A DNA stretch of 61,313 bases, the filler included, from Sphacelaria rigidula (taxonomy: Eukaryota), in assembly GCA_964200075.2 (NCBI GenBank). It is 8 parts of 8 records of this genome, joined end to end, with 100 filler letters (N's around TTAATTAATTAA, not from the genome) between each part and the next. Parts side by side here need not be neighbours in the genome. Positions count along the whole stretch, not along the records: positions 53,738 to 61,313 come from CAXNAA020014270.1; 7 more parts are not named here. One strand, written 5' to 3'. Both the position numbers and the translations under genes were made by a program. This document shows, piece after piece, positions 32,877-61,313 of the stretch (position 1 is its first letter; every line of letters begins with the position of its first letter). The notes beneath the pieces are model-generated. The model was not told where the DNA came from, did not search any database, and worked only from the letters and a program-made list of their open reading frames with translations.

Positions 32877-34223
32877 GGCAATCAGTACAGATTTAAACAG
32901 AAATCGACAGCTTAACGTTCTCATTAGAAAGCAACGCGCATGAAACGATCTTCAGGTGGGAAAACGCGGATTTTCTTAGAGGAGAAACTCTCTGGTCCCC
33001 CGTGAGTGTTACATGCGCTTGCAAAAACTCTGTCGTCGTTCTTTCATACCTGGCGGGGGGGCGGGGAAGCCACCCGTCCTCAGGTAACAAGAGTAATTTC
33101 AATCATGTACACGTGGTTGAGAAAATCGAACTGTTTTATTTCTGCAGCTGTTGCGGAATTCGGTACATGTTACGGTGGGTGACCTCTGGGCAGACGGCAG
33201 TCAGTACAGTAAAGCAACGAAAGCTAGCTATGATCGGGTGTGCCTGCCGTACTGCCGCCAGCGTTGCTTGAAAGTCACAAGACCTTTGCGGTCGGCGGTT
33301 GATGACCTGGGTGTCAAATGCAACAGGTGGTTGATCATAGAGCACTCTTGTTCGTGGGGTCATATCTCGCCCCAGCTTGTAATGCATGACCTCCTCACAT
33401 CGGGAATAATTATGGGAAACTGCTGCATCGAGGTGTTCACGCAGCCAGTGTGTGCTCCAGATTGCAGCATGGACGCACCCCTCTGCACCACGCTAGCAAC
33501 AGTTACTGTTTTCACCCCGCATGTCAAGAAGGTCTCCACAAGTGTTTGATCTCTCATACGACCCCACCCAATCGGCCTGTGGCACGCTTTTGTGATAGGG
33601 CACCCAGATGGTCACATGTCGGGTAAAACCAGCGATGAATAACACTCCCCCCCCCGAGTTCAAATTGGATATGTTACCACCGCAGCGCACCGTCCTTGCT
33701 GGCATGTGTGTGGCAGAGAACAGTAGCGGTGACGGTCACATTGCCCTGTTTTCCAACGACGTTTTTCAGCGCACAGAGGCGCGTCCTGTTCAAAAAGAGG
33801 CAGAGAGAAATCGATCTTCGGATTGGTGAGCTCCACAGCCAAGAAGCGACGAGATCCCTCCGCACCTCGATGTTGTTTGGGGGGCTGTGCGCAGCAACAT
33901 AATAACATGCCTGCCGGCACATGGGAAATTGGGTTCATGCTGGTAACATGCATGATGCCAGTCTCTCGAGCGATTGGTAATCGCCGAGCGAGGNNNNNNN
34001 NNNGAGGAGCTTCCTCTCTATCGTTGCTCCTCTCTCTGGTGATATCGTCATCGACACGCGTGCACACCGCATTCGTTCGGTGCACCTAGCCACAACTACT
34101 TCACTGCTGCAGACTTTTGGGGGGGAAGATGGTTTCGCTCTGGGTAACTGTTTCGCGTCATGCCTGCAAAAAAGATATGTCGCTTGAACCTCATTTTAGA
34201 GATCAACCCCAAAAGTCAGGAGC

Positions 34224-37200
34224 TGTGACGCCAGCCAGTGGAAGCACTGTTGGATCACTGCTGTCGAGTGACTCCCCAGTCTTACTGGCCTCAGGTTTCA
34301 GTTGTCAGCCTTTACAACATCATCTCATCATTCAGGAGTGACCTTCCAGGCGGCTCCATAAACCACATCAGGGTATCACCCCTGTGTCAACGTCATCATC
34401 CATACCATCCCTGTGTATATGTCATCATCCAGTCATCACTATATGCTCAACGTGGCGGCGTGATTTTTTCACAGCACCCCTACAGCGCGTTTGACGGGAA
34501 CCGAGCAACAAGCTTGACACTCAGAAAAATAACGCCAAAACGATTGAGCAAGTCACAACTGAATCCCAAACTCACGTGTAATGCGAGCAGCAATGGAACG
34601 AGTCACTCGCACCTTACGCAACTCATTTTTGAGAAATTCCGGAGCGGCCTCAAAAATATTTGAGAGGCTCCCACGTGCGCTCCTCGACTTCACAACCTTC
34701 CTAGTCGACTAATACGATCAACGAACGATCCTCTGCCTCTGCCACGCGAGCAATCCCGACCATCTAAAACTGCCCCTGGTTGAAAGCGTGCTGAAACACA
34801 TCCTTCACGTTAACCGTTACATTAAGCTGTGCGTCTGCATAAAAACGCAAACGAGCTACATAAGCGATCTGAACACGACCGGAAACAATGTTTTGGATCT
34901 CAAACACATGCGGGTGATGAGCACCAACCACTCTTCACGGACCAGTCCACGTCGCCATCAATTTCGGCGTAACTCCCGGGCGACGCACGCGTGCATACAA
35001 GACATAATCGCCTACCTCGAAATTCGGCAATTCCAGCCCCGACGAGGACCCTTCAGGTCTACGCGCACGTTCAGCGGCAACACCTTCCTGTACTTGAACA
35101 TGGAAACGTTCTTGCAAGTCCAAGACTCCTTGCAATGCACTCTTAATTTGAACATCGTCCAAAACATCACACTTCCATTCCCCCACCGACGAAGACGCCA
35201 GCACAGAGAAGACGTCCGAGGGGCACGACCGAACATCACGTGATACGGCATACTATCGTAACGACGACGATACGCTGTACTAAGCGCCCATTGCACCGCC
35301 GGCAACACGCCCACCCACTCGGAAACCGCTCTACACTGCTCGAGAAGAACAGAGCGAAGAGCACAAATTACTTCCTTGACCATGCGTTCGCACGTACCGT
35401 TTGGCCACGGAGAATACGCTACCGCAAACTGGTGATCAACGCGCAAAGCCTTCCGCAATCGGGCCAAGATCGCATTCTTGAAATGCGTGTCGGTATCACT
35501 CACCCACATATGCGGTACCCCCAAAGGTTTGCACCAATTCAGCAAGGATGCAGCGGTCGATTCGGCAGTACACACGGCTTTTGGTTCCAGAGCCACAAAG
35601 TTGCTCAAAGCATCCATGATTACCTTAATGTATCGAAACCCAGCTTCCTCCGATAAACCTTGGGAAGCTAGCGGGCCACTCCCGCCCACGTACAAGAAGT
35701 CAAAATGAACGACTTTATTCGGCGTGGTCCCATGGACCGTTTCGCCGAGCGGGCGGGGAACAACATCGCCCACCCTCGAGTCAGCACAGTGAAGACACTG
35801 GGGGACAAATTCGCGCAAATGAGTTTCTATCCCCTGCCAGACACAAAGCTCTTGCAAACGGACGAGCGTCGCAGCCACACCACGACGCACAGCGTCGCGC
35901 ATGTGCGCGCAACACATCCTCGCTGACCTATGCGCCGCTAATCCCACTTGACGCCACGGCTGCGCAAGCTGCGCAGGCGAAGACGCCTCGGCAGGTTCAA
36001 ACGGCACCGCCGGCGGGTACGCTCCCCAGCCAGCATACCAAGAATTTGGCGACCCTTCGATCAGCGCGTCAACAGGCGTCGCGCCTGGCGCTGCTGCCGG
36101 TGTCGCCGCTGACGCCACCTCCGGCGCCGGCGCCGTCTTCGACTCTGTAGAAGTTGGGCCCACCTGCACCGCCCGCTGCGGAGCAGCAGCACCTACGGCG
36201 GCGCCGAACCCAGAGCCAGGCCCATGCTGACGCCGCTGCCCCTGCTGCTGCTGGTTCTGCTGCTGCGGCTGCTGCTGCGGAGGGCTCGCCTGTGACCCTC
36301 CATCGCCGGAGGATTCGCCGCCGCCACCACGACTACCTCGTATTTTGCCCTTGTTCTGACGATGCTGATGGCGCGCGGCACTAGACTGCCCAGACTCTCC
36401 ACCGGAAGACGTTGGGCAATCGCGCGCGTAATGGCCAACCTGGCCACAGAGGTGGCAAGTATTACTCGCGGCGCGATCAGCCGATTTCGAGCCAAGCTTG
36501 GGCGAAGATTTCGGCGAAGAGGTGGACGACTGGCCGAACACGTCTATTTTCGGCCACTCCTTGGCCTCGGCCACGACGGTGCTCATCACCAGGTACGGAT
36601 CATCCTTCCAACCTGATTGGTGCTGCAGCTTGACAAGCACGGCTTACTTGAAATTTTCGGGTGCTAACCCCTCCACCAAAGCTTAGTGATTACTGCTGCC
36701 GGGTCGGGAATGAACGCACCATCGGGGGAACGATATACTAGTTCTACGTTCGGATTTTCCGTGAAGTACTTCTCCAAATTAGCCAAGATGGGCTCCACAC
36801 GCTCCAAAATCGTTTTCCCCCGAGAATCCATCACGACAGCTTCCGCCACCGCCGCGGACGCTTGGGTCAGATCTACCTCGGCGCCCGCCGCATGCCCTGC
36901 ATGCTTTTTGATCGCCGCAACCAATTGCGGCGAGGTTATGGTGCTCTCGTTATGTTCCAAACGAGCGAACACTCTCGGTACATGAATCGGTACTTGTTGA
37001 GCCATAGTCACCACCTGATGCCGCACGGCACCCCCTGCATTAGCGTGCTCCACACGCCTCTTGTACTCTTCTAAGTGTTTTGTATGAAAAGTGCGAGATG
37101 CACTCTCTGAGTACCTGTCCCCGTATTGGGGAGGTCGCAGTTCTTCCCGCATGACCACGGGTGTCACTGTGGACGTACCTCGTGAGCCGGTAGCCATACC

Positions 37201-51000: not shown

Positions 51001-54000
51001 CATCGCACATATCACGCACATCGAGAAAGCCTTCTATATATGCGACGGATATCCGCCGTAATACCCCCCTCTCTTGCCTCGTGCACGCTGCTCAATGCAA
51101 AGTAGGGAGTGTCACGGCTGGTTTCATACCAGGAAAAATCCACTCCGGTACATGCCATCAGCCCTACATCACGCTAACGACGAGAAAATCGCGGAATTTC
51201 GGGCCTACAATATAGTCAGCGTCGGAAGTGTGCAGAATTCGTAATTTCTTCGTTTCTCACAATTTTTCCAAATTTGTTTCGCTTGCCACCGCTCATCACA
51301 GTAACTGTTGGATGCCATAAAATGCGTATCTGGAGATATTTCAATCCTCTAGACAAATGTCGGAAGAAACAACATCTGCGATCAATATTGAGTGACTTAC
51401 GGGCTTGACCGATCTTCGGAGGTCCTGCAAGAGTGCAACCCCAGGTTCTACCTTTTCGGTACTTCCGGTGGACCGACTCGATCCCGATCATATAAGTGAA
51501 GACTCAAAAAGTTTTTTTAAATCCAACTATTTACTGCGCTAAAGCCGGGAAACTATGTTTCTTGAACATTCACGGTTAATAACACCCTCCTGATTAACGG
51601 GGTCTTCGCTCCGTATCGCCCCCACGACACCAACTTGGGCATTGTGATTTAAGCACGGTCTGCTTATTTTGTCGAAACTATCGACGCTGGCACTTCCGAG
51701 TGCTCATGAAAAATGTTATGCGAAAACCCTCCAAAAAGAGATCATCCACAGAAAATGCTGGAGTGAAGTCTGTGCAGTATAGGAGGGAAACACGATCTCG
51801 ATCGTTATTGTGAAGAATTCAACACGTATTCATCAATACTTGTCGTTTCGTTGCGGAAGAGCCGGAAAACGCCTTTCATTGGACCAGAAACGGTCAATAA
51901 CACCCTCCTGATAAACGGGGTATCTAGTCTGTATCGCCCCAAAAACACCAACTTGGGCACTGCAGTTTAAGCGCGGCCTACGCTTACCCCTAAATCTACC
52001 GGCGCTAGCACTCTCAAGTAGTAATAAAGAATATGACTCGAGAAAAACTCAAAAACTACAAGAACTACGAATTCTGAAAACTTCTGATGCTGACTACTAT
52101 AGTGATAACCACGGGATTAAAACGTCATGAGATCAAAGATGGGCCAAACCTGGTATTCAGGGGGGGGGGAAGCCTTATCGTTTGGGGAAAAAATCTCTCA
52201 CGCCCTTTCGGATCATGGTGAGTGCTTTCGCATGTGCTATTTTATGTCGTCCCGGGATCCCAGTTACACTGGGAACAGAAACTACTGAGGATAGTCGAAA
52301 ACTATTTTCAGATGGTAACAGCGCTTAGACACTCCTGATTGGTTACATCAATCCTGGGTAGAGTAGGACTTGCAAAAGGCTGACCCACTGAAAAAAAAAC
52401 AATACGTTTGCTGGTTGATGGGAGTGCGTAGCCTTCTCTCCCGTCAACCAGCAGCCGCTGACCTACTGGACACCGGGGACTCCTATATCTCAGATCAAGA
52501 GTTCTGTCATGATACAGTGTCCAGGCAGGTACTCGGTGCCCACCCTTCTTGTACAATGCTAATTCTACATGAACTTTTCTACACGAAAAGTGGGGCACCC
52601 TAGAGTCGGATCCGCAATCACGGAGACTGAGAAAAAAAAAAAAACATGAATCGAACCCAGGACTGACCAATGGGGAAAGAAAAAAAGAAAAGAGAGAGAA
52701 AAAGAAATATAAAATGCAATACCACACAGCGAGGAAAAGGGCACCGCAACTCCGCATCCATTCAGGACGAGAAAACCAAGCGGCGTAGGTGTTATAGGAC
52801 AAAAAGGGCTATGGAAAACAAGCAAAAGAGGCTACAGAACTCAGTGAAGACAAAGACACTGCTAATCCAACAAGATCCATCCGCCAGAAGTGTATTATGT
52901 ACACAAGGCTCCCTTTCGGGAGGTTGGTACGGGCCTCCCGAGGGTGACGGAAGTCGAAATGTAAAATATACTCTGTATGCCTTGTCAGCGCGCTGTAGTA
53001 GAAGATAGCGTGGGGAAAAATGCCTTGCTGGCAGAGAAAACTCGGCAACAGTGATGAAAAATGTGAAATGATACACGTCCATAATATACATGGGTTAAAT
53101 GAATTGAGAAAAAGCGCGCGAGTCATCGCTTTGTCCGTGGCGATCGAGCAGGTATATATTGCCCTCCGTGAAAAATAAACAGACGTGGACAAATAAACAC
53201 AACTGATGAGGGAGCCTCCAATTACATAGAGCAACAGTTTCTTGGTATTGAGAGTAGAAGATACGGTTGAGAGTGAAGAGCGGTCAATTAGTGAATCAAT
53301 CGTTTCAGTCCCGAAATACCCCTCCCTGAGGCCCGATATGCTTTCTGTAGTAGCATGCCACTGAGGCCCTTGATACCCCTGAGTAGGATATCGATGTGTA
53401 ACTGTAAGCACACGCCAGTGATGGAGGCAAAGAAAAGCACGCACGGAATATAAAATGGGCAAGTTAGATCGAATGACCAAAGCCACTCTCAACCAGCGCT
53501 CTACTCTCAATCTCACGTTGTTACAGGTCACGACTTCGAATGCACACCTTTGGCCGCCATTCACTTATTAAACAATATAGAGCAATGCTACGGTAGGGGT
53601 GCACTTTTTTCGCGAAATGTTGTCTGGTTCAGAGGCTNNNNNNNNNNNNNNNNNNNNNNNNNNNNNNNNNNNNNNNNNNNNTTAATTAATTAANNNNNNN
53701 NNNNNNNNNNNNNNNNNNNNNNNNNNNNNNNNNNNNNCCGTCAGCACGACTAAGACGAGCAATGTTCGTGTCTTGGAATCGATCAGCTGCGGGTTTGTGT
53801 TTCCCCCCCTTAATCAAAAAGTCGGTTTCAACGCAACATGGATAGGCCACAAGATTCCGGCACGGAAACGACTGGGATACTCCCCTTCGAACCCTTCCCT
53901 CTGGCGCACAGAATGGTGCTTTGTCTTCTATCGAATTTGAGAACACGATCAGGTAGGTGTTCCACGCACGGTGATACCATCGGTTGCGAACGACAAGCAT

Positions 54001-54566
54001 CGACGCCGTCTATTCTCATCAATCGGGACCCCGTGAAACCATGCTCAACGCGACAGGACGATGAACCCCTCCCTGCCCCCCCCCCACAAACTCCCGAACT
54101 CCCTACCCCAACCCAACCCCAGGAATATCGTATCCGCAGGTGTGATACCTTTTTGGTGTTCCCCAGTCGGTTGTAAGACACGATTTCTATCGACAGATCA
54201 TGAGAGGGTGATTACTATCGCAACCGTCTTACCCGGCACCCTCCACCAAGACTTCCTTCTTCTTCCATGGCGCTGCACTCAACTCTGCCCAAACCTACAT
54301 ACGCTCACTCGCCCCCACTTGGACGGCCGAGCAAGGGGTCGTGTGAAATTTACAAGAGTTCAAATCTACAAGCCGACGGAAATCTCGTCTCCATCTGTCT
54401 CGGTCACGAGCGCGCGACGCATGCCAAGGTCAATCCTCTCGGTGCTGCATTGCGGTTGATCAAAGGTACAGTGTTACTGTCCACAGAAGCCACTATGCGC
54501 GGCGTCTGAACCTCTTCCCCTGCTTCATTGACCAAAACTGGACGTCCAGAACACTGTCCTTTACAA

Positions 54567-57500
54567 TTATTTACTCTTCTCTTGTTGTGACTTCGCAACA
54601 ATGATTTCATCCAACACCCCCTTTGGAATCTTGGCCCCGGAATTGAGTCTTCGACATGAAGCCGTGACCAAATCTGATGCCATCCACTCGACGTCCGGGG
54701 CCAACTTGCGCTTTCTGCTGGTGGTGTCGACCCCAGCCCCGTCACAACTTTCTGTGGTTCTGTAGTCTTCGGTGAGCTTACCGTTCCCGTATTCTCTGAT
54801 GCTGCAATCAGCCGCGCCGCTGCGAGCTTTGGAGGTCGCCGGTGACCACCAGCGCACCTGAACGTCGGCCTCACTGCCGACAGTCTCCCGTACGTCGATC
54901 ACCTTGCCCACCAAAAACGGGGCTTCGTCGGCGAGGAAGAAAACGAAGTCTCCCTTCACGAATGAGGGAATGTCAGTTTGCTCATCACGGACGGCGCCAC
55001 CGCTGGTGCCCGCCCCGCCCTGCCCACACACCCCGGAGTGCTGAATGACACCCCCCGACGTGTCACGAACAGAAGTGTCCAGCTCCCTATCCGACCCATC
55101 GCCGAAACTACATTCTTCTGTCCCCGTGTCCTCCTTCGCCGCCCCTTGGGCTGGCTGCACGTCGTTGCGCCGCAGGCAGTGGCAAGGTAGATTCCAAGGC
55201 ACGGAGCCCTTTGCGCCGAGTAGTCTGTGGGAGGTAGCCATTTCGTTTTTGATTGTCTCCTGCCTCTCCAAATCTACGAGCACGCGTACGGTCTGATGGG
55301 ATCAGGGGCGGCCCGTGTGCGACCTCCTCGTGGTTTTGATTCGGCAAGATGATTGTTTAATTGATCGCCGCGCAGCAAATGATCTCCCAGCAATCGAGCC
55401 GTGGTAACAGTATCGACAACCGGAACGGGGACACTCGTTGGAGGAAAGTGAAGGACAATCATATACAAACCGTTAGAAAAAGGGTTGGTAACATACTCAG
55501 AACTACATCAAGCAGGAAAAAATACAAATACCCAACCTGGAATAGAGGTTGCCGGCTTTTGCGGCCTGCCTCTTCCGTAAAACGATGCGCGCAGAAGTAC
55601 ACACTCGTACGTCGTCGACGAAAACAAAACAAAATGTGGGAACAGAGGACGGCAGGTCTACCCCGACCGCCCTATCCGCAAATGAAACTGTCAGTACTGA
55701 ACCCTCTGCAAATTGGCCCTCAACTGCAACTTTGAGTACCCCGGGGTAACGCAGAGACGCTATTTTGAGTCAAGACAAAGCCCACTTTCCCTATCCCTGT
55801 GTTGTACTCTTGGGTACTTTGGTTTCCCTCAGCCTCGCTGTCTACCTTGCGTTGGGGGTGTCCTCCATCTCTAAGCGCCATTTTTTTCACGAAAACAATT
55901 AACACGTGCTGAGAGGACAGAGGATAACGAGCCTTCACAATATCACACCCTTTTGACATACTGCCGTACGGCGGGTTCAGACTTAGGGTTCGGGCACATC
56001 GTGAGACCGCCGACCAAGGACTACATCAACACCGGTTACTAAAGTCGGGGATGCGTCAAGCGGAACAAATATAACGACAAGGTGGGGCACGACAGCAAAA
56101 ACCGTGCACGCGCGATCACACGAGGATAGTTTGTGCGGCACAATATAAAGAGGGGGAATCTCCGGTGTGCGCGCACCTAGGGGGTAGAGGGACGCCAGGC
56201 GACTGTGCACGGCATTGTAGCGAGCCAGAACGCATGCCCGCGCGACTGCATCAACGACCTTCAGGTTGAAGGGAGATGCTAACTCCATATCTGGGACACC
56301 CGCTCGGAAAACCAAGTGTGGGGGGCCTTCGTAGACACTGGGAGCCGTCATCCCGGTGAGGTCAGGCTTGTGCATGTACTGTTTCATACCAACGCTGACC
56401 TGGGCTGGCCCCGCAGGCCGGATCTCGAACGACCGCGGCGACGTTATGCCAACGATGGGAAACACGCGACCGCCGTCTGTCAGGGCTCCTTTGAAGTTGC
56501 CCAAGGGGCGGAGAGTGGTGGTGTAGACGGGCAGGCTCGTGTACGCAGCACTGAAGGCCTCTGCCTGCTGTTGTCTTGTGAACAAGCAAGAACCCTTGCA
56601 GTGTGCGGCAATCCTGTTAAACAATCGTAATTAAGTACCAGATGTGGTCATCGATCACATACTTCCACCTGCACACTGACCCTTCAATGTCCAAAATAAC
56701 TCGTGACATCGAGATATGTGTGGACACTCATGTACTGTGCAACCATACCTTCTTACCCATACGAGAGTCGTACTGATGCCGCAAATAATTTGACACCGGA
56801 AAAGACCACCCGCGAAACGGCATTATTTGCAGGATGTGCTCCTGGCTTTTATTTCGTATTTTTTAATTGGCGGGAATTTCGTCCATATGTTCTGTGACTT
56901 GATGCCTTGGACTTCGTTCAAAATAGGAAGAGTGAGGTTTTGCGAATACGAACCTAACCCCGGTCTCGGTCCTGAATATTTCTACCTAGGTTGGAAGTTA
57001 CAGCCGATCCCCAGCCCAAGTGCCAAGATACATTAGCGCGGTAAATTACAAAGGTTTACTGAGTGATCCCACGGCAGGGGTGTATTTGTAGGAACTCTCC
57101 ATCTCATTAGGGTTAGGGTTACGGATAGGGTCGGGGCCTAACCGTGGGATGAGCGAGGCCATACATCACAGCCGGATGATCCAGTCGCATCTTTTATTTC
57201 GCAATCATGCGTTGCTGTCGGAGGTCCCCCACCACGGACATGCGCTAGTCTTCCCAATACCATCCCTGCTGTGCCTTGCAGAAGGGTTCTCATTGCTTCT
57301 TTTGAGCCTCTTGAGAAACAAGCACACAAATAATAAATAAGAACCCAAACAGAATCGTAAAAGGGCACTCTAAGACAGCTGAAAATAAAAAGAGAATAGC
57401 CCCGCCACGAGCAGGCCAGGGGGTGTAAACAATCGATTATCTATTCCAGATTTTGATCCAAATCGACCAATGTCGGCTTCTCGGTCTTCCACGTCCGTGC

Positions 57501-59400
57501 GCATGATCGACTGTTCTGATCACGATTTGTTCTTCAATTCGATACCGATCTTCAATTTCGACGCATACTTCTTTGTACACACCTCGAGAAGGCCTGATCG
57601 ATCATGATGTGGGTATTTCCAACCATCATGAAATTGACCTCAACCCGTCCGATGATGCCTCGAGCCACCAGAGAACCCAGGTACGTGAGGACGATGTGAT
57701 TCTTGTTTTCGCCCTCACAGTTGTCGAATTGGGCGTATAGTTCGTCGATGTACGCTGGGGTGCCGGCGCTGCAGTGCGTGTCGAACAGTCGCGTCAGTGC
57801 CCGGTGGATGGAGGTGCATATAAGATTGCTGCCTGCGAAACAAGTTCACGGCAAGGTGATGGCGGGATGGCGGGACGGACAGCGTGCGATGTTCGTCATG
57901 TTTATGGAATAAATGTTGTTGTGGACTGTGGGGCAGTGTGCTGTACCGAACCACGCGCCTCGGCGGTAGAAGTATCGAACGAATAGACTACGGCAGACGA
58001 ACAGTTACTTACTTCGAATTGGGTGGGCGGCGATACTACGCTATAAAAAAATCGAGATGCGAACGAACCATGCCGACGACCGCCTCACGGTATGATTCGG
58101 CGACTGCATAACACGAGCACCGTACTCGAACTCACCGCCTCCGACGGTCTGAGGTGCCAGGAAGAAATTCACGAACTGTCCCTCCATGAGAACTGCCATG
58201 ATTTTTTGGCGTTCGGCATATCCCCTGTCAGTCGCCGCATCGCGCATCGTGCACAATCGTGGAGGCGAATCAGACACGGTACAGTCTAGTCGACGCACGC
58301 GCGAATGAGTATCCGCCAGTGCCATGACCTGGGTGTACGCGAGTGTTGGAAGCGCTAACCAAAGGGGGACACCGTCGAATGCACGGTCATTTGTCGTTCG
58401 TACTCGCTTATCTGTGCTGTGCGTCACTGGAGAACACATAGGTAGAGCGAACACCGTTTGAGCTGCTGCATTGGCTTGTAGAGACACGAACTTCAACGGC
58501 TCCTGATTGGCCTTCGCTCGGATGGCAGCCCCACTAATGAAAGCCAGGCGCTGACGGTCTAGAGTCATCAACTGTAACGGTCAAGGGGAGGTCCGCATCG
58601 TAAGGTTGATGAATATCTCGAGCGTTGTATCTACCATTGGGGCAAACCACGTGCCTCCAGCCGTGGTCCCATGAAAGACGAACCCGGGATTGAAGGAAGC
58701 GCAGAAGCACCCGCTCGGGAGGCGTGAAGTAACCACAGATATTTCAAACACATAGCTCATGTATTCAGATCAACATACACACAACAAACGAAACCAATCC
58801 GAAATTACGAACTAAACATAAGCTAGGTAAATGATAAGAAAAACGGTCGGCAATTAATACGCGGCTCGTGCAGAGAGAGTTTCCGCCAAGACAATGTGTA
58901 ACTGGGAAACGCTACTCGGCCGCATGGACCTGGGAAAATTGAATGGAGGGGCACTCGCGACTTGCGATACCGTGACGGAATCAGCCGAGGTCGCATAGGG
59001 AGATGGAGGTTTACTCGACAGAATTTCGACGCGTACTCGCGTCGAAACATTTGGTATCGACGGGTCGCTGCAGGTACGAGCTGAGGAAATATAGTTGTCG
59101 GGAAATATCCTCCCCTTGACTGATTCGATACACCTGCGACTGCTTTGGATGTAAATCGTGGCGCAATCTCACATATTGCGTATCGTCGTTTTTCCGGTTA
59201 CATCACGAGCTGCCGACAATTTCGACGAGAAGACGACTCACTTGCAAGTGCGCCTTCTGCTCCATAGCGACCTCATCCATCTTGCCGGGGTCAGCGGTGA
59301 CCCTCACACCAGAACTCCCATTAAGGGTGTCATGGTACAGAGTGCACGCGTTACACTTCATAAATGTGCCGCCGACCTTGGCCTTTTAGTGGGGTCGGTC
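54567..59400 (-). pseudogene. Multi-exon Sola-like DDD transposase pseudogene; exons 59400-59242, 58571-58408, 58224-58136, 57832-57583, 56613-56177, 55292-54567, with more decayed coding sequence probably up to ~61150
   Basis: Four consecutive junctions are phase-compatible and give FMKCNAC...HLQ|LMTLDRQR...FVSLQANAAAQTVFALP...K|GY...GG|SNLICT...LYAQFDNCEGENKNH...VNFMMVGNTHIMIDQAFSR|IAAH...IVGITSPRSFEI, matching the DNC-x-x-x-NKN and GHT-x-x-x-x-D pattern of Sola-type transposases. In-frame TAA near 59387. Confidence 0.8.
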
Positions 59401-61313
59401 CTTGCGCATCGTGGTGTAAAAATAGCTGACACTTGCGGCTGCCCCTCCTCCCGTACTACGCATATCCTCCACGAACGCATCATACACTTCTTGTCATTGG
59501 GGATGTGAGGTGGTCGCGTGTTTCGAGGGATCGTGCGCAGGAAGTTGAGCCCGCAACGCCGGATAGTTACGCTATATGGCGACGACGTTGTGCGCGCGCG
59601 TGAAGTTGTTAGCGCGACATCAGCGTGCGCATGAAGCCAAACAACTTGCACACAAGCGCGATGCGCTGCGTCCCGGGCTCCGGCGCGTATATCTGTACTG
59701 TCATCCACCGCATTGCCTCTTTCTGCGACGCTATTCCCAGGGGGGACGGATCCGACTATTGAACTGAATCAGATAAGACGCGATATTGAGCATTGGGATG
59801 GATATTTTAGTAAGGTTGAGCGTTGGGAACCTTCGTAAGCATTACTGCGATTACGCAATACAAGAAAGAGTCTGCCCTCTCCGATTGTGCCGTGCGGCGT
59901 GGCTCCTCCTGAACAATAGCCCGCCTGCAATTTGTGGCATCCTGTACTTACATGGAACAAGTTAATCCTCCGGTCCTTCCTGTATTTTACACTGCTCTTG
60001 TATTCCAGAACCCCCTACAAAACACGGGATTTTACAAATGATCGGCGTCTTCTCCTATGATGAGCGACGCCACAAATTACGGCCGGAGAGTGCATTTGTA
60101 ATTACACTTCGAAAACATTTTGATGCTTGTGGCGGGTCCCAGCGTTATTCCTTCATAAAAACTGTGCTCAATTTCCGAAATCGCGTGCTAGATGCGCTAA
60201 GGGGTAGTCGATGGTCCAGTAATTTGAATTGGGATCGAAGACTATGAACACCGTCGGGGATTAAAGTGTTCCAGGCCCGTATCTCTAGCCCGACAAAAAC
60301 ACAAATCGAAACGATATTTACCAACTGCTTCCTCAAATGTTTTGGCAAAAAAATACCAGATGAAACTGAAAAAAGACGCGGTTCACCGTGGGTGATGCCC
60401 CGAGAGCGAGCCCCCCCCCCAACCACCGCCCACACACACATATCGGTCGATAAGCGCGACCGAAACAATGGCTGTCCAAGCGCTGCCTACATTTACCCAC
60501 CTGTTTATTTCTCATGTAGAAGTATACAGCATTCTGGTGCGGCATATTTTGCCCGTACATTTCTGCGTATCTGTCGAGGAACGCCAGGATTTTGTTTCGG
60601 TGAACAGGATTCCTACCGTCTCCTGGACAACCGTCGCCCCTGACACAACACCCGAAACACAACATTCGTAAGATTCAGAGGGTTGTTTCAGATTCAGAGT
60701 GAGACCCGAAACAATCGACTTTCCCGTTGATTTTGACATCGCCACAGATCGAGGAGTAATGCGCTCAGCTGGTCAAGCGGTGGCTTCAATGAAAGCTGTC
60801 ACCTACACGATCATTTTGACACATCACTTGATCGCAACAAATGATAATGCTCAAGCAAAAAAAATAATGATAAAATTTTCCTGTTGGGAACGCTGGAGTA
60901 TCCACTCCGACTCTGATACTACCCTTTGAATATCACGAATAGGGTCTTCCGGGTGCATCACGATGAGAAACCCAGTTGAGCAAAAACAATTCCCGTCACA
61001 GGTGTTCAACGGGTCTATGTCGCATATACAACCGCATGTGGGCTGGGTTGGATCCTGGCATGTTCGAGATTCAGAATCATTATTTCGCCATAATATCACA
61101 CGCCTCTTTTTGTGACCATGTGTGTGTAGTACATAGGCATAGACACCAGTACACGGCAGTCCTTGACCGGGTTTGAGCGCAAAATGTGTATCCACCCACA
61201 TAGGCGGATCCAAGGGGCCTTACAGACTGGAAAACGGTTTATACCCCTCCCCCCCCCCCCCCCTCCTCGTCTCGAAAGGGATGCGTGGTCAATGGTCAAA
61301 TGACTAAGGCAAG

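Follow-up and report, generated by a model that had tools for sequence, protein, structure and literature searches.

Results

An intron-split gene on the minus strand of the last piece

The window analysed here (the whole stretch of DNA, 61,313 nt, from the brown alga Sphacelaria rigidula) carries, on the minus strand of the eighth of its joined pieces (piece 8, positions 53738–61313, ~7.6 kb), a gene model of at least seven exons that runs from about 60611 down to 54567. As we discuss below, this is very probably the degenerate transposase gene of a Sola1-type (DUF7869) cut-and-paste DNA transposon that occurs in many copies in a brown-alga-like genome. Five of the exons had been proposed from the sequence alone (the original prediction), and these five are real and in frame: when spliced they form a single 1099-nt frame with one stop, their donors are GTGAGT, GCGAGT, GTGAGT, GTGTGT, and GTGCGC, their acceptors are all AG, and they are backed by colinear homologues and by splice joints in sequencing runs. 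It had also been remarked that the frame of the fourth of these exons is missing from the list of open reading frames (ORFs), and the four ORFs of a default listing are indeed all in other frames.

A word-based protein search found a 610-residue Ectocarpus protein with 62% identity, and a 935-residue Ectocarpus protein from the same cluster, P0153, is the closest full-length relative of the window gene. P0153 aligned to piece 8 in seven colinear tblastn high-scoring segment pairs with edges at GT/GC..AG sites (E 2e-38 to 1.6e-6), and the edges of the pairs made by P0153 and by another Ectocarpus homologue, P0002, coincided with the proposed exon boundaries. A hidden Markov model (HMM) built from 37 full-length relatives matched the pieces found with P0153, again colinearly, over profile positions 157–739.

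In the extended model, the introns measure 1011, 670, 183, 303, 969, and 903 nt in the 5′ to 3′ direction of the gene. The most upstream mapped segment (60501–60611, where 60611 is the limit of what was mapped and not the 5′ edge) is the 3′ part of an exon that encodes ..KILAFLDRYAEMYGQNMPHQNAVYFYMRNKQ and is followed by a GTGGGT donor; residues 220–248 of P0153 matched 60599–60513 (tblastn E 1.6e-6, or 2.7e-9 on a small target), as did family-HMM positions 157–193 (E 5.6e-5). Beyond a GT..AG intron (59490–60500) lies the first of the proposed exons, lengthened at its 5′ end to 59489 (59242–59489); it encodes ..EVYDAFVEDMRS..SYFYTTMRKDRPH, an in-frame stop, and KAKVGGTFMKCNAC..KAHLQ, and was matched by P0153 residues 252–338 (59493–59230, E 3.7e-15) and by HMM positions 193–231 and 238–276. 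The original prediction had placed a broken donor, AT, at 59465, but there is no intron at that site, the exon being open from 59489 to 59389 and homologous throughout.

The next intron (58572–59241, GTGAGT..CAG) separates KAHLQ from the following exon, and the annotated S. rigidula gene model P0011 reads KAHLQ/LVTLDR across it. That exon (58408–58571) carries the first catalytic motif, in the form QANAAAQ, and was placed by homologues and splice letters. It is followed by a GC-AG intron (58225–58407, GCGAGT..ACAG) that is in frame and stop-free, and whose 61 codons are missing from homologues. The exon at 58136–58224 encodes GYAERQKIMAVLMEGQFVNFFLAPQTVGG and was matched by P0153 residues 387–419 at 73% identity (tblastn); after an intron at 57833–58135 (GTGAGT..GCAG), the fourth proposed exon (57583–57832) carries DNCEGENKN as the second catalytic motif and GNTHIMID as the third, and was recognized by Pfam DUF7869 and by the family HMM (E 5e-31). 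The placement of the intron at 56614–57582 (GTGTGT..ACAG) relies on three colinear homologues: P0153, P0002, and P0004 all have ..DQVFSR/L.. across it. The exon at 56177–56613 encodes the post-catalytic part of the core (IAAHCKGSCLFTRQQQAEAF...SLYPL), with matches to P0153 residues 498–646 (tblastn E 2e-38, 50% identity) and HMM positions 430–569. Finally, an intron at 55274–56176 (GTGCGC..GTAG) leads to the last exon (54567–55273), in which a helix and a low-complexity linker precede a predicted BAH-like β-barrel domain (about 54570–54970) and which ends in a TAA stop at 54569–54567; P0153 residues 648–857 (tblastn E 5e-9) and HMM positions 634–739 (E 7e-7) matched it.

Three further observations touch this map. 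A short telomere-like run, AACCCTAACCCTAA (a CCCTAA-like repeat), lies near 57113–57130 on the minus strand, within the 969-nt intron. The window ORF closes shortly past the C-terminal domain, short of the conserved basic tail (..V/R-L-T-A-A-H-F-R-P-R-R-G..) with which many relatives end and which, in them, comes behind a low-complexity acidic run. A cysteine-rich stretch at 60851–61150, upstream of the mapped gene, had been put forward as the N-terminus. This candidate was not supported: the open frame that holds it (60851–61219, minus strand) gave no family-profile match at E≤10, and its best relaxed tblastn match had an E-value of 2.2 on an 834-nt target. A CC-x4-C motif at 60842–60819 gave E 0.35 in relaxed tblastn.

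Splice joints and copy number in four sequencing runs

Four runs of one organism (X1, X2, X3, and X5) were aligned to piece 8 at an identity of at least 90%. Of the six introns in the extended model, four were bridged by contigs in X1–X3, all with GT/GC..AG flanks. First, the joint 55273/56177, which skips 903 nt, was present in one contig each of X1, X2, and X3. Second, the joint 57832/58136 (303 nt skipped) was found in one X1, two X2, and one X3 contigs. Third, the GC-AG intron, with its GC donor at 58407, proved to be real, as the joint 58224/58408 (183 nt skipped) appeared in two contigs of X1 and two of X2. Fourth, the joint 59489/60501 (1011 nt skipped) appeared in an X1 contig with 34 letters on its shorter side and in none of X2, X3, or X5. 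A fifth joint, 58572/59243, which skips 670 nt in one X1 contig with 92 letters on the shorter side, falls 1 nt away from the modelled cut, an offset that would be explained if that copy differed from the window at 59242, with G in place of A. None of the five joints was seen in X5, despite its 25,377 aligned contigs.

Annotated gene models of S. rigidula cross the same junctions. P0011 and P0048 are 84–91% identical to the window over exons 1–2 and less so over exons 3–4, and P0004 is 57–66% identical over exons 4–5 (numbering of the five proposed exons). Because these three models come from S. rigidula, the nearest named relatives of the gene are in brown algae.

The same alignments speak to copy number. 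The four runs contributed 966, 880, 1059, and 25,377 contigs, mostly at 90–95% identity. Three of the runs covered all 30 depth bins of piece 8, and the other covered 29; in X5, between 1 and 22 contigs overlapped the listed variable sites and 75–87 overlapped 60728–60765. The gene, its introns, and both flanks thus all lie inside a multi-copy repeat. No run contains half of the words of the stretch, and the exact window copy is therefore not in the runs. The remaining seven pieces of the window yielded no further copies.

Some features of the 5′ flank were noted in passing. Just upstream of the mapped gene, 60863–60933 (71 nt) is exchanged for 73 other letters in one contig each of X1, X2, and X3. 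The end of the piece (61243–61313) is a poly-G/C tract that passes into a very deep repeat, with a summed depth of 74,000–85,000 in X1–X3 and of 2.2 million in X5. Position 61268 is a point at which hundreds of contigs diverge, and several short-sided joints to it look like low-complexity artefacts.

The DUF7869 family and its predicted catalytic core

The ORF that contains the fourth exon (57555–57845, minus strand) matched Pfam DUF7869 (PF25273) with an E-value of 8.1e-21 and 74.9 bits against a cut-off of 26, over profile positions 35–117 of 192; Pfam assigns no function to this family. The other seven of eight ORF pieces scanned from the gene had no Pfam match. That absence is what might be cited for the view that the exons are spurious, a product of chance or of annotation in a non-coding repeat, a view to which we give almost no credence, as it is already refuted by colinear tblastn matches down to E 2e-38, the Pfam match at E 8e-21, the family HMM, and splice joints at predicted sites.

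A family search returned 2008 clusters (at 50% identity) at E≤1e-3 and 477 at E≤1e-10. The nearest Atlas clusters are eukaryotic and are commonest in Streptophyta, Oomycota, Arthropoda, and Hemichordata. Among 16 relatives scanned against Pfam, 13 have DUF7869 and no other significant domain, and these include every full-length or near-full-length protein (13 of 13). Across 37 full-length members the invariant columns are, in P0153 numbering, D368, D455-N456, K462, G490-H491-T492-H493, and D497, and a 62-sequence alignment agrees. The core motifs of the family are S-x3-D-G-A-D-Q, Q-x-D-N-C-x2-E/Q-N-K-N, and P-V-G-H-T-H-x2-I-D-Q, and D368, D455, and D497 (37/37 each) form its candidate DDD triad.

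We modelled the Ectocarpus homologue P0002 with AlphaFold2 (AF2), obtaining a mean predicted local distance difference test score (pLDDT) of 74.6 and values of about 90 in the core. The modelled elements follow the order β1-β2-β3-α1-β4-α2-β5-α, with D56 on β1, D143 at the end of β4, and D185 on the following helix; across 62 sequences D56 is conserved at 90% or more, and D143 and D185 are invariant. Structural alignment with VIA-align of residues 15–218 gave Z-scores of 9.3–10.0 to retroviral integrase cores and to the Tc1/mariner proteins Mos1 and SETMAR, with a root-mean-square deviation of 2.7–4.0 Å over 129–175 aligned residues, and Foldseek returned the same families with weak E-values. 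The model thus shares with these enzymes an RNase H-like fold and the placement of acidic residues, but identity to them is only 7–13%, the motifs differ, and the DUF7869 family has in addition a domain after the catalytic core and a C-terminus that is BAH-like. Sequence-profile searches of the PDB, with the family alignment and with a C-terminal alignment, returned nothing significant except a low-complexity match. From the modelled fold and the positions of its aspartates, the DUF7869 family protein is predicted to be an RNase H-fold DDD transposase.

Lesions of the window copy

Several features indicate that the copy in the window is dead. First, the exon at 59242–59489 contains the premature in-frame TAA that the original prediction had noted near 59387; it lies at 59388–59386. 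All 18 contigs that cover 59386 (1, 1, 1, and 15 in X1, X2, X3, and X5) have a plus-strand G there and read TAC (Tyr) with no stop. Second, QANAAAQ has Asn (AAT, 58472–58470) at the position of the first catalytic Asp, which is Asp in 37 of 37 family members, and P0011 and P0048 read QADAAAQ. Third, GNTH has Asn (AAT, 57617–57615) at the position of His491, again invariant in the family (37/37) and a neighbour of the third acidic residue, and P0044 and P0004 have His. Both substitutions had been called correctly from the sequence alone. Finally, the first mapped junction leaves a 1-nt phase mismatch: at 59489/60501, a complete codon (CAG) meets a frame that needs the G at 59490. In addition, the second-Asp block reads DNCEGENKN in the window, whereas all covering contigs (1, 2, 1, and 12) and both homologues have Val in place of the first Glu (DNCVGENKN).

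The catalytic triad of the window copy is thus not intact, and a member with Asn at the first catalytic Asp would be a dead one that yields no active enzyme. The stop, the two changes at invariant residues, and the phase mismatch together mark this copy, as judged from its sequence, as dead. The description of a heavily spliced transposase that is now dead fits what we found: homologues align in colinear order, contigs show splicing, the homologue model has an RNase H fold, and lesions fall on invariant residues.

Probable assignment to Sola1

Within the consensus positions that we compared, the link from DUF7869 to a named superfamily comes from the RNase_H_Sola1 profile, which Muszewska et al. 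(2017; PMC5751038, Supplementary File S1) published and which derives from group E.10 of Majorek et al. (2014). Its positions 82–124 read i-l-y-s-D-n-c-a-g-q-N-k-n ... v-I-e-l-k-f-l-e-p-g-H-s-k and align to TIQVDNCVSENKN...VEVQFMPVGHTH (..FMPVGHTH) of P0153 and to the fourth exon of the window over 43 positions with no gap, including D86, N92, and H122. Within this segment, positions 86–94 (D n c a g q N k n) and 117–124 (f l e p g H s k) correspond to the second-Asp and GH blocks. Sola1 and the DUF7869 family therefore have, over the compared segments, the same D-N-C-x-G/S-Q/E-N-K-N block, identical spacing from it to F-L/M-x-P/V-G-H-S/T, and a first block of the form D..Q..L-P. The window copy differs in having Asn at the first Asp. 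The original prediction had named DNCxxxNKN and GHTxxxxD as the second- and third-Asp motifs of Sola-type transposases; DNCxxxNKN and GH[ST] do agree with the profile, but the third Asp lies beyond its end. As the published profile stops before that residue, D497 of P0153 is presumably the Sola1 third Asp.

A described element from another brown alga offers a second comparison. In the portions of the report that we drew on, Sola1-1_Ec32 of Ectocarpus is 21.5 kb long, has AACCG..CGGTT termini, a 282-bp imperfect terminal inverted repeat (TIR), and a 4-bp target-site duplication (TSD), is present in 1989 copies (2 of them intact), carries a transposase gene, and has a moss Sola1 as its best blastp match (Genome Biol 2025, PMC12477816). 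The window gene likewise has a brown-alga host, many copies, and a transposase gene, and its closest full-length relative, P0153, is also from Ectocarpus; P0153 may be the Sola1-1_Ec32 transposase. A ParB-methyltransferase accessory gene, as in Sola1-1_Ec32, was not seen in the 7.6-kb piece or among ORFs of at least 140 residues in the other pieces.

Several points weigh against reading piece 8 as a degenerate Sola1-type transposase gene. On the superfamily, the comparison covered consensus letters 5–30 and 82–124 of 124 (69 positions) and was made by eye with no computed score, so that the term Sola1-type, taken from consensus letters rather than from any curated Sola1 protein, appears to hold at the level of motifs. 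Known Sola1 elements have TIRs and a 4-bp AWWT-like TSD as hallmarks in the sources consulted, and no TIRs or TSD were found in the 7.6-kb piece, where inverted repeats amounted to chance-like pairs of 16–22 nt, none at plausible termini. In addition, PF07592 (DDE_Tnp_ISAZ013) is annotated on 11% of the members of an arthropod-rich Atlas DUF7869 cluster. On the protein, the fold was read on the model of a homologue and not on the window's own core, and the N-terminal part (about 220 residues in P0153) was not found in piece 8, where neither the family profile nor relaxed tblastn gave anything significant upstream of 60611. On splicing, X1–X3 are presumed by guess to be RNA, the joint 59489/60501 was seen in a single contig, and the intron at 56614–57582 has no joint among those listed for the runs.

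The first of these groups bears on the best-surviving alternative, that the gene encodes a DUF7869 transposase from a different DDD superfamily, perhaps one not yet described (Sola3-like, for instance, or related to Zator/ISAzo13), that merely shares short motifs with Sola1. We regard this as unlikely. It draws on the by-eye nature of the link, on a profile that ends before the third Asp, and on the first block, as Sola1 positions 8–18 (s-f-d-l..q-k-v-l-s..l-P) are only loosely like IIDGADQ..GLP; moreover, the comparison used the Sola1 profile alone. The part of the Majorek et al. (2014) supplement that was examined contained no Sola-labelled or motif-bearing sequence. The PF07592 annotation could hint at a distant tie between DUF7869 proteins and another, bacterial-type transposase family, but none of the 16 family members scanned matched PF07592 at E≤0.01. 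Against this alternative, too, every upper-case letter of the available profile, the mark of its most conserved positions, is matched or conservatively replaced in the gapless register of 43 positions, which would be hard to obtain by chance, and the Streptophyta-rich nearest clusters fit a moss Sola1 as the best blastp match of Sola1-1_Ec32 (PMC12477816, in the portions used here).

A second alternative is that the locus is the pseudogene of a domesticated, transposase-derived gene retained by the host, rather than part of a mobile element. Host-type introns, a conserved C-terminal domain that resembles a chromatin reader, and the annotation of copies as ordinary gene models could all be taken that way. 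This explanation is nonetheless very improbable, as hundreds to thousands of contigs that are 90–99% similar together span all 7.6 kb of the piece, with its introns and flanks, relatives retain the full catalytic motifs, and the window copy has several independent lesions. The original prediction had itself named a single-copy, syntenic host gene as the outcome that would speak against it, and the piece is multi-copy.

A predicted BAH-like domain at the C-terminus

When the last exon of the window gene was itself modelled with AF2, pLDDT reached 85–95 over residues 110–244, and the top Foldseek rows for this model are mostly BAH domains (SHL, MTA1, DNMT1, TNRC18, polybromo, BAHCC1, and AIPP3), with probabilities of about 1.0 and E-values of 0.016–0.05. 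In the P0002 model, residues 413–518 aligned to the BAH domains of EBS (Z 7.6), SHL (Z 7.2), and DNMT1 BAH1 (Z 7.0) with VIA-align. The modelled β-barrels of the homologue and of the window's last exon superpose on those of BAH histone readers (SHL, EBS, DNMT1 BAH1, BAHCC1, and TNRC18), but the Foldseek E-values are modest and the sequence matches weak: sequence-profile matches to the RSC2 and EBS BAH domains had E-values of 0.4–0.5 and were not significant, and Pfam BAH had no match in the window ORF pieces or in the relatives scanned. With moderate confidence, then, the predicted C-terminal domain is BAH-like.

A broader proposal, which we put forward only tentatively and consider doubtful as it stands, is that DUF7869/Sola1 transposases of brown algae and beyond possess a conserved C-terminal BAH-like histone reader that tethers integration to marked chromatin. 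If true, the family would be one of DNA transposases that bring their own BAH reader and whose integration is guided by chromatin. Surveys of transposon-reader fusions, in the parts consulted, stress Chromo and PHD domains. The BAH-like C-terminus is the only part of the present finding able to lead somewhere new.

A working model and its context

In intact relatives, the gene would be split by host-type spliceosomal introns and would be transcribed and spliced by the host. The intact product would be a protein of about 900 residues in which an RNase H-fold DDD core lies between an N-terminal region and a C-terminal BAH-like domain. If it works as other DDE/D enzymes do, this transposase would bind the terminal inverted repeats of its element, excise it by two-metal catalysis through the three aspartates, and then reinsert it, duplicating a short stretch of the target. 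The copy in the window would be a non-autonomous relic and, if mobile at all, would be moved in trans by intact copies. The locus itself is a dead and fairly ordinary repeat copy for which no function is expected.

Many classical DNA transposons contain introns. Giant Sola1 elements and intron-containing transposon genes are already known in Ectocarpus, and the portions of that study used here describe intron-containing transposon genes curated from RNA-seq and note that pseudogenised transposase genes are frequent in giant elements (PMC12477816). The claim that a DNA transposon with many host-style introns is unusual and easy to miss was therefore overstated, all the more as partial copies are already present as unnamed S. 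rigidula gene models. What the analysis yields beyond this copy is the bridge between DUF7869 and Sola1 and the BAH-like domain. The former is a practical bridge from an unnamed Pfam family to a described superfamily; our literature search on DUF7869, PF25273, and the motif strings found no relevant paper and none that makes this link. For the annotation of brown algae, gene models labelled 'unnamed protein product' can be flagged as transposon fragments, and an intron-split transposase that ORF lists miss can be recovered by exon-by-exon reading.

Other features of the window

The window consists of eight joined pieces of 7,576–7,577 nt each, and every junction is formed by two 44-N runs around a 12-nt linker free of G and C; a further gap of 10 N lies at 33994–34003. 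Among 50 open frames of at least 140 residues in the other seven pieces, the sole Pfam match was in a 543-residue minus-strand frame at 35015–36643, which contains a CCHC zinc knuckle (PF00098, E 1e-6) and may encode a Gag-like retroelement protein.

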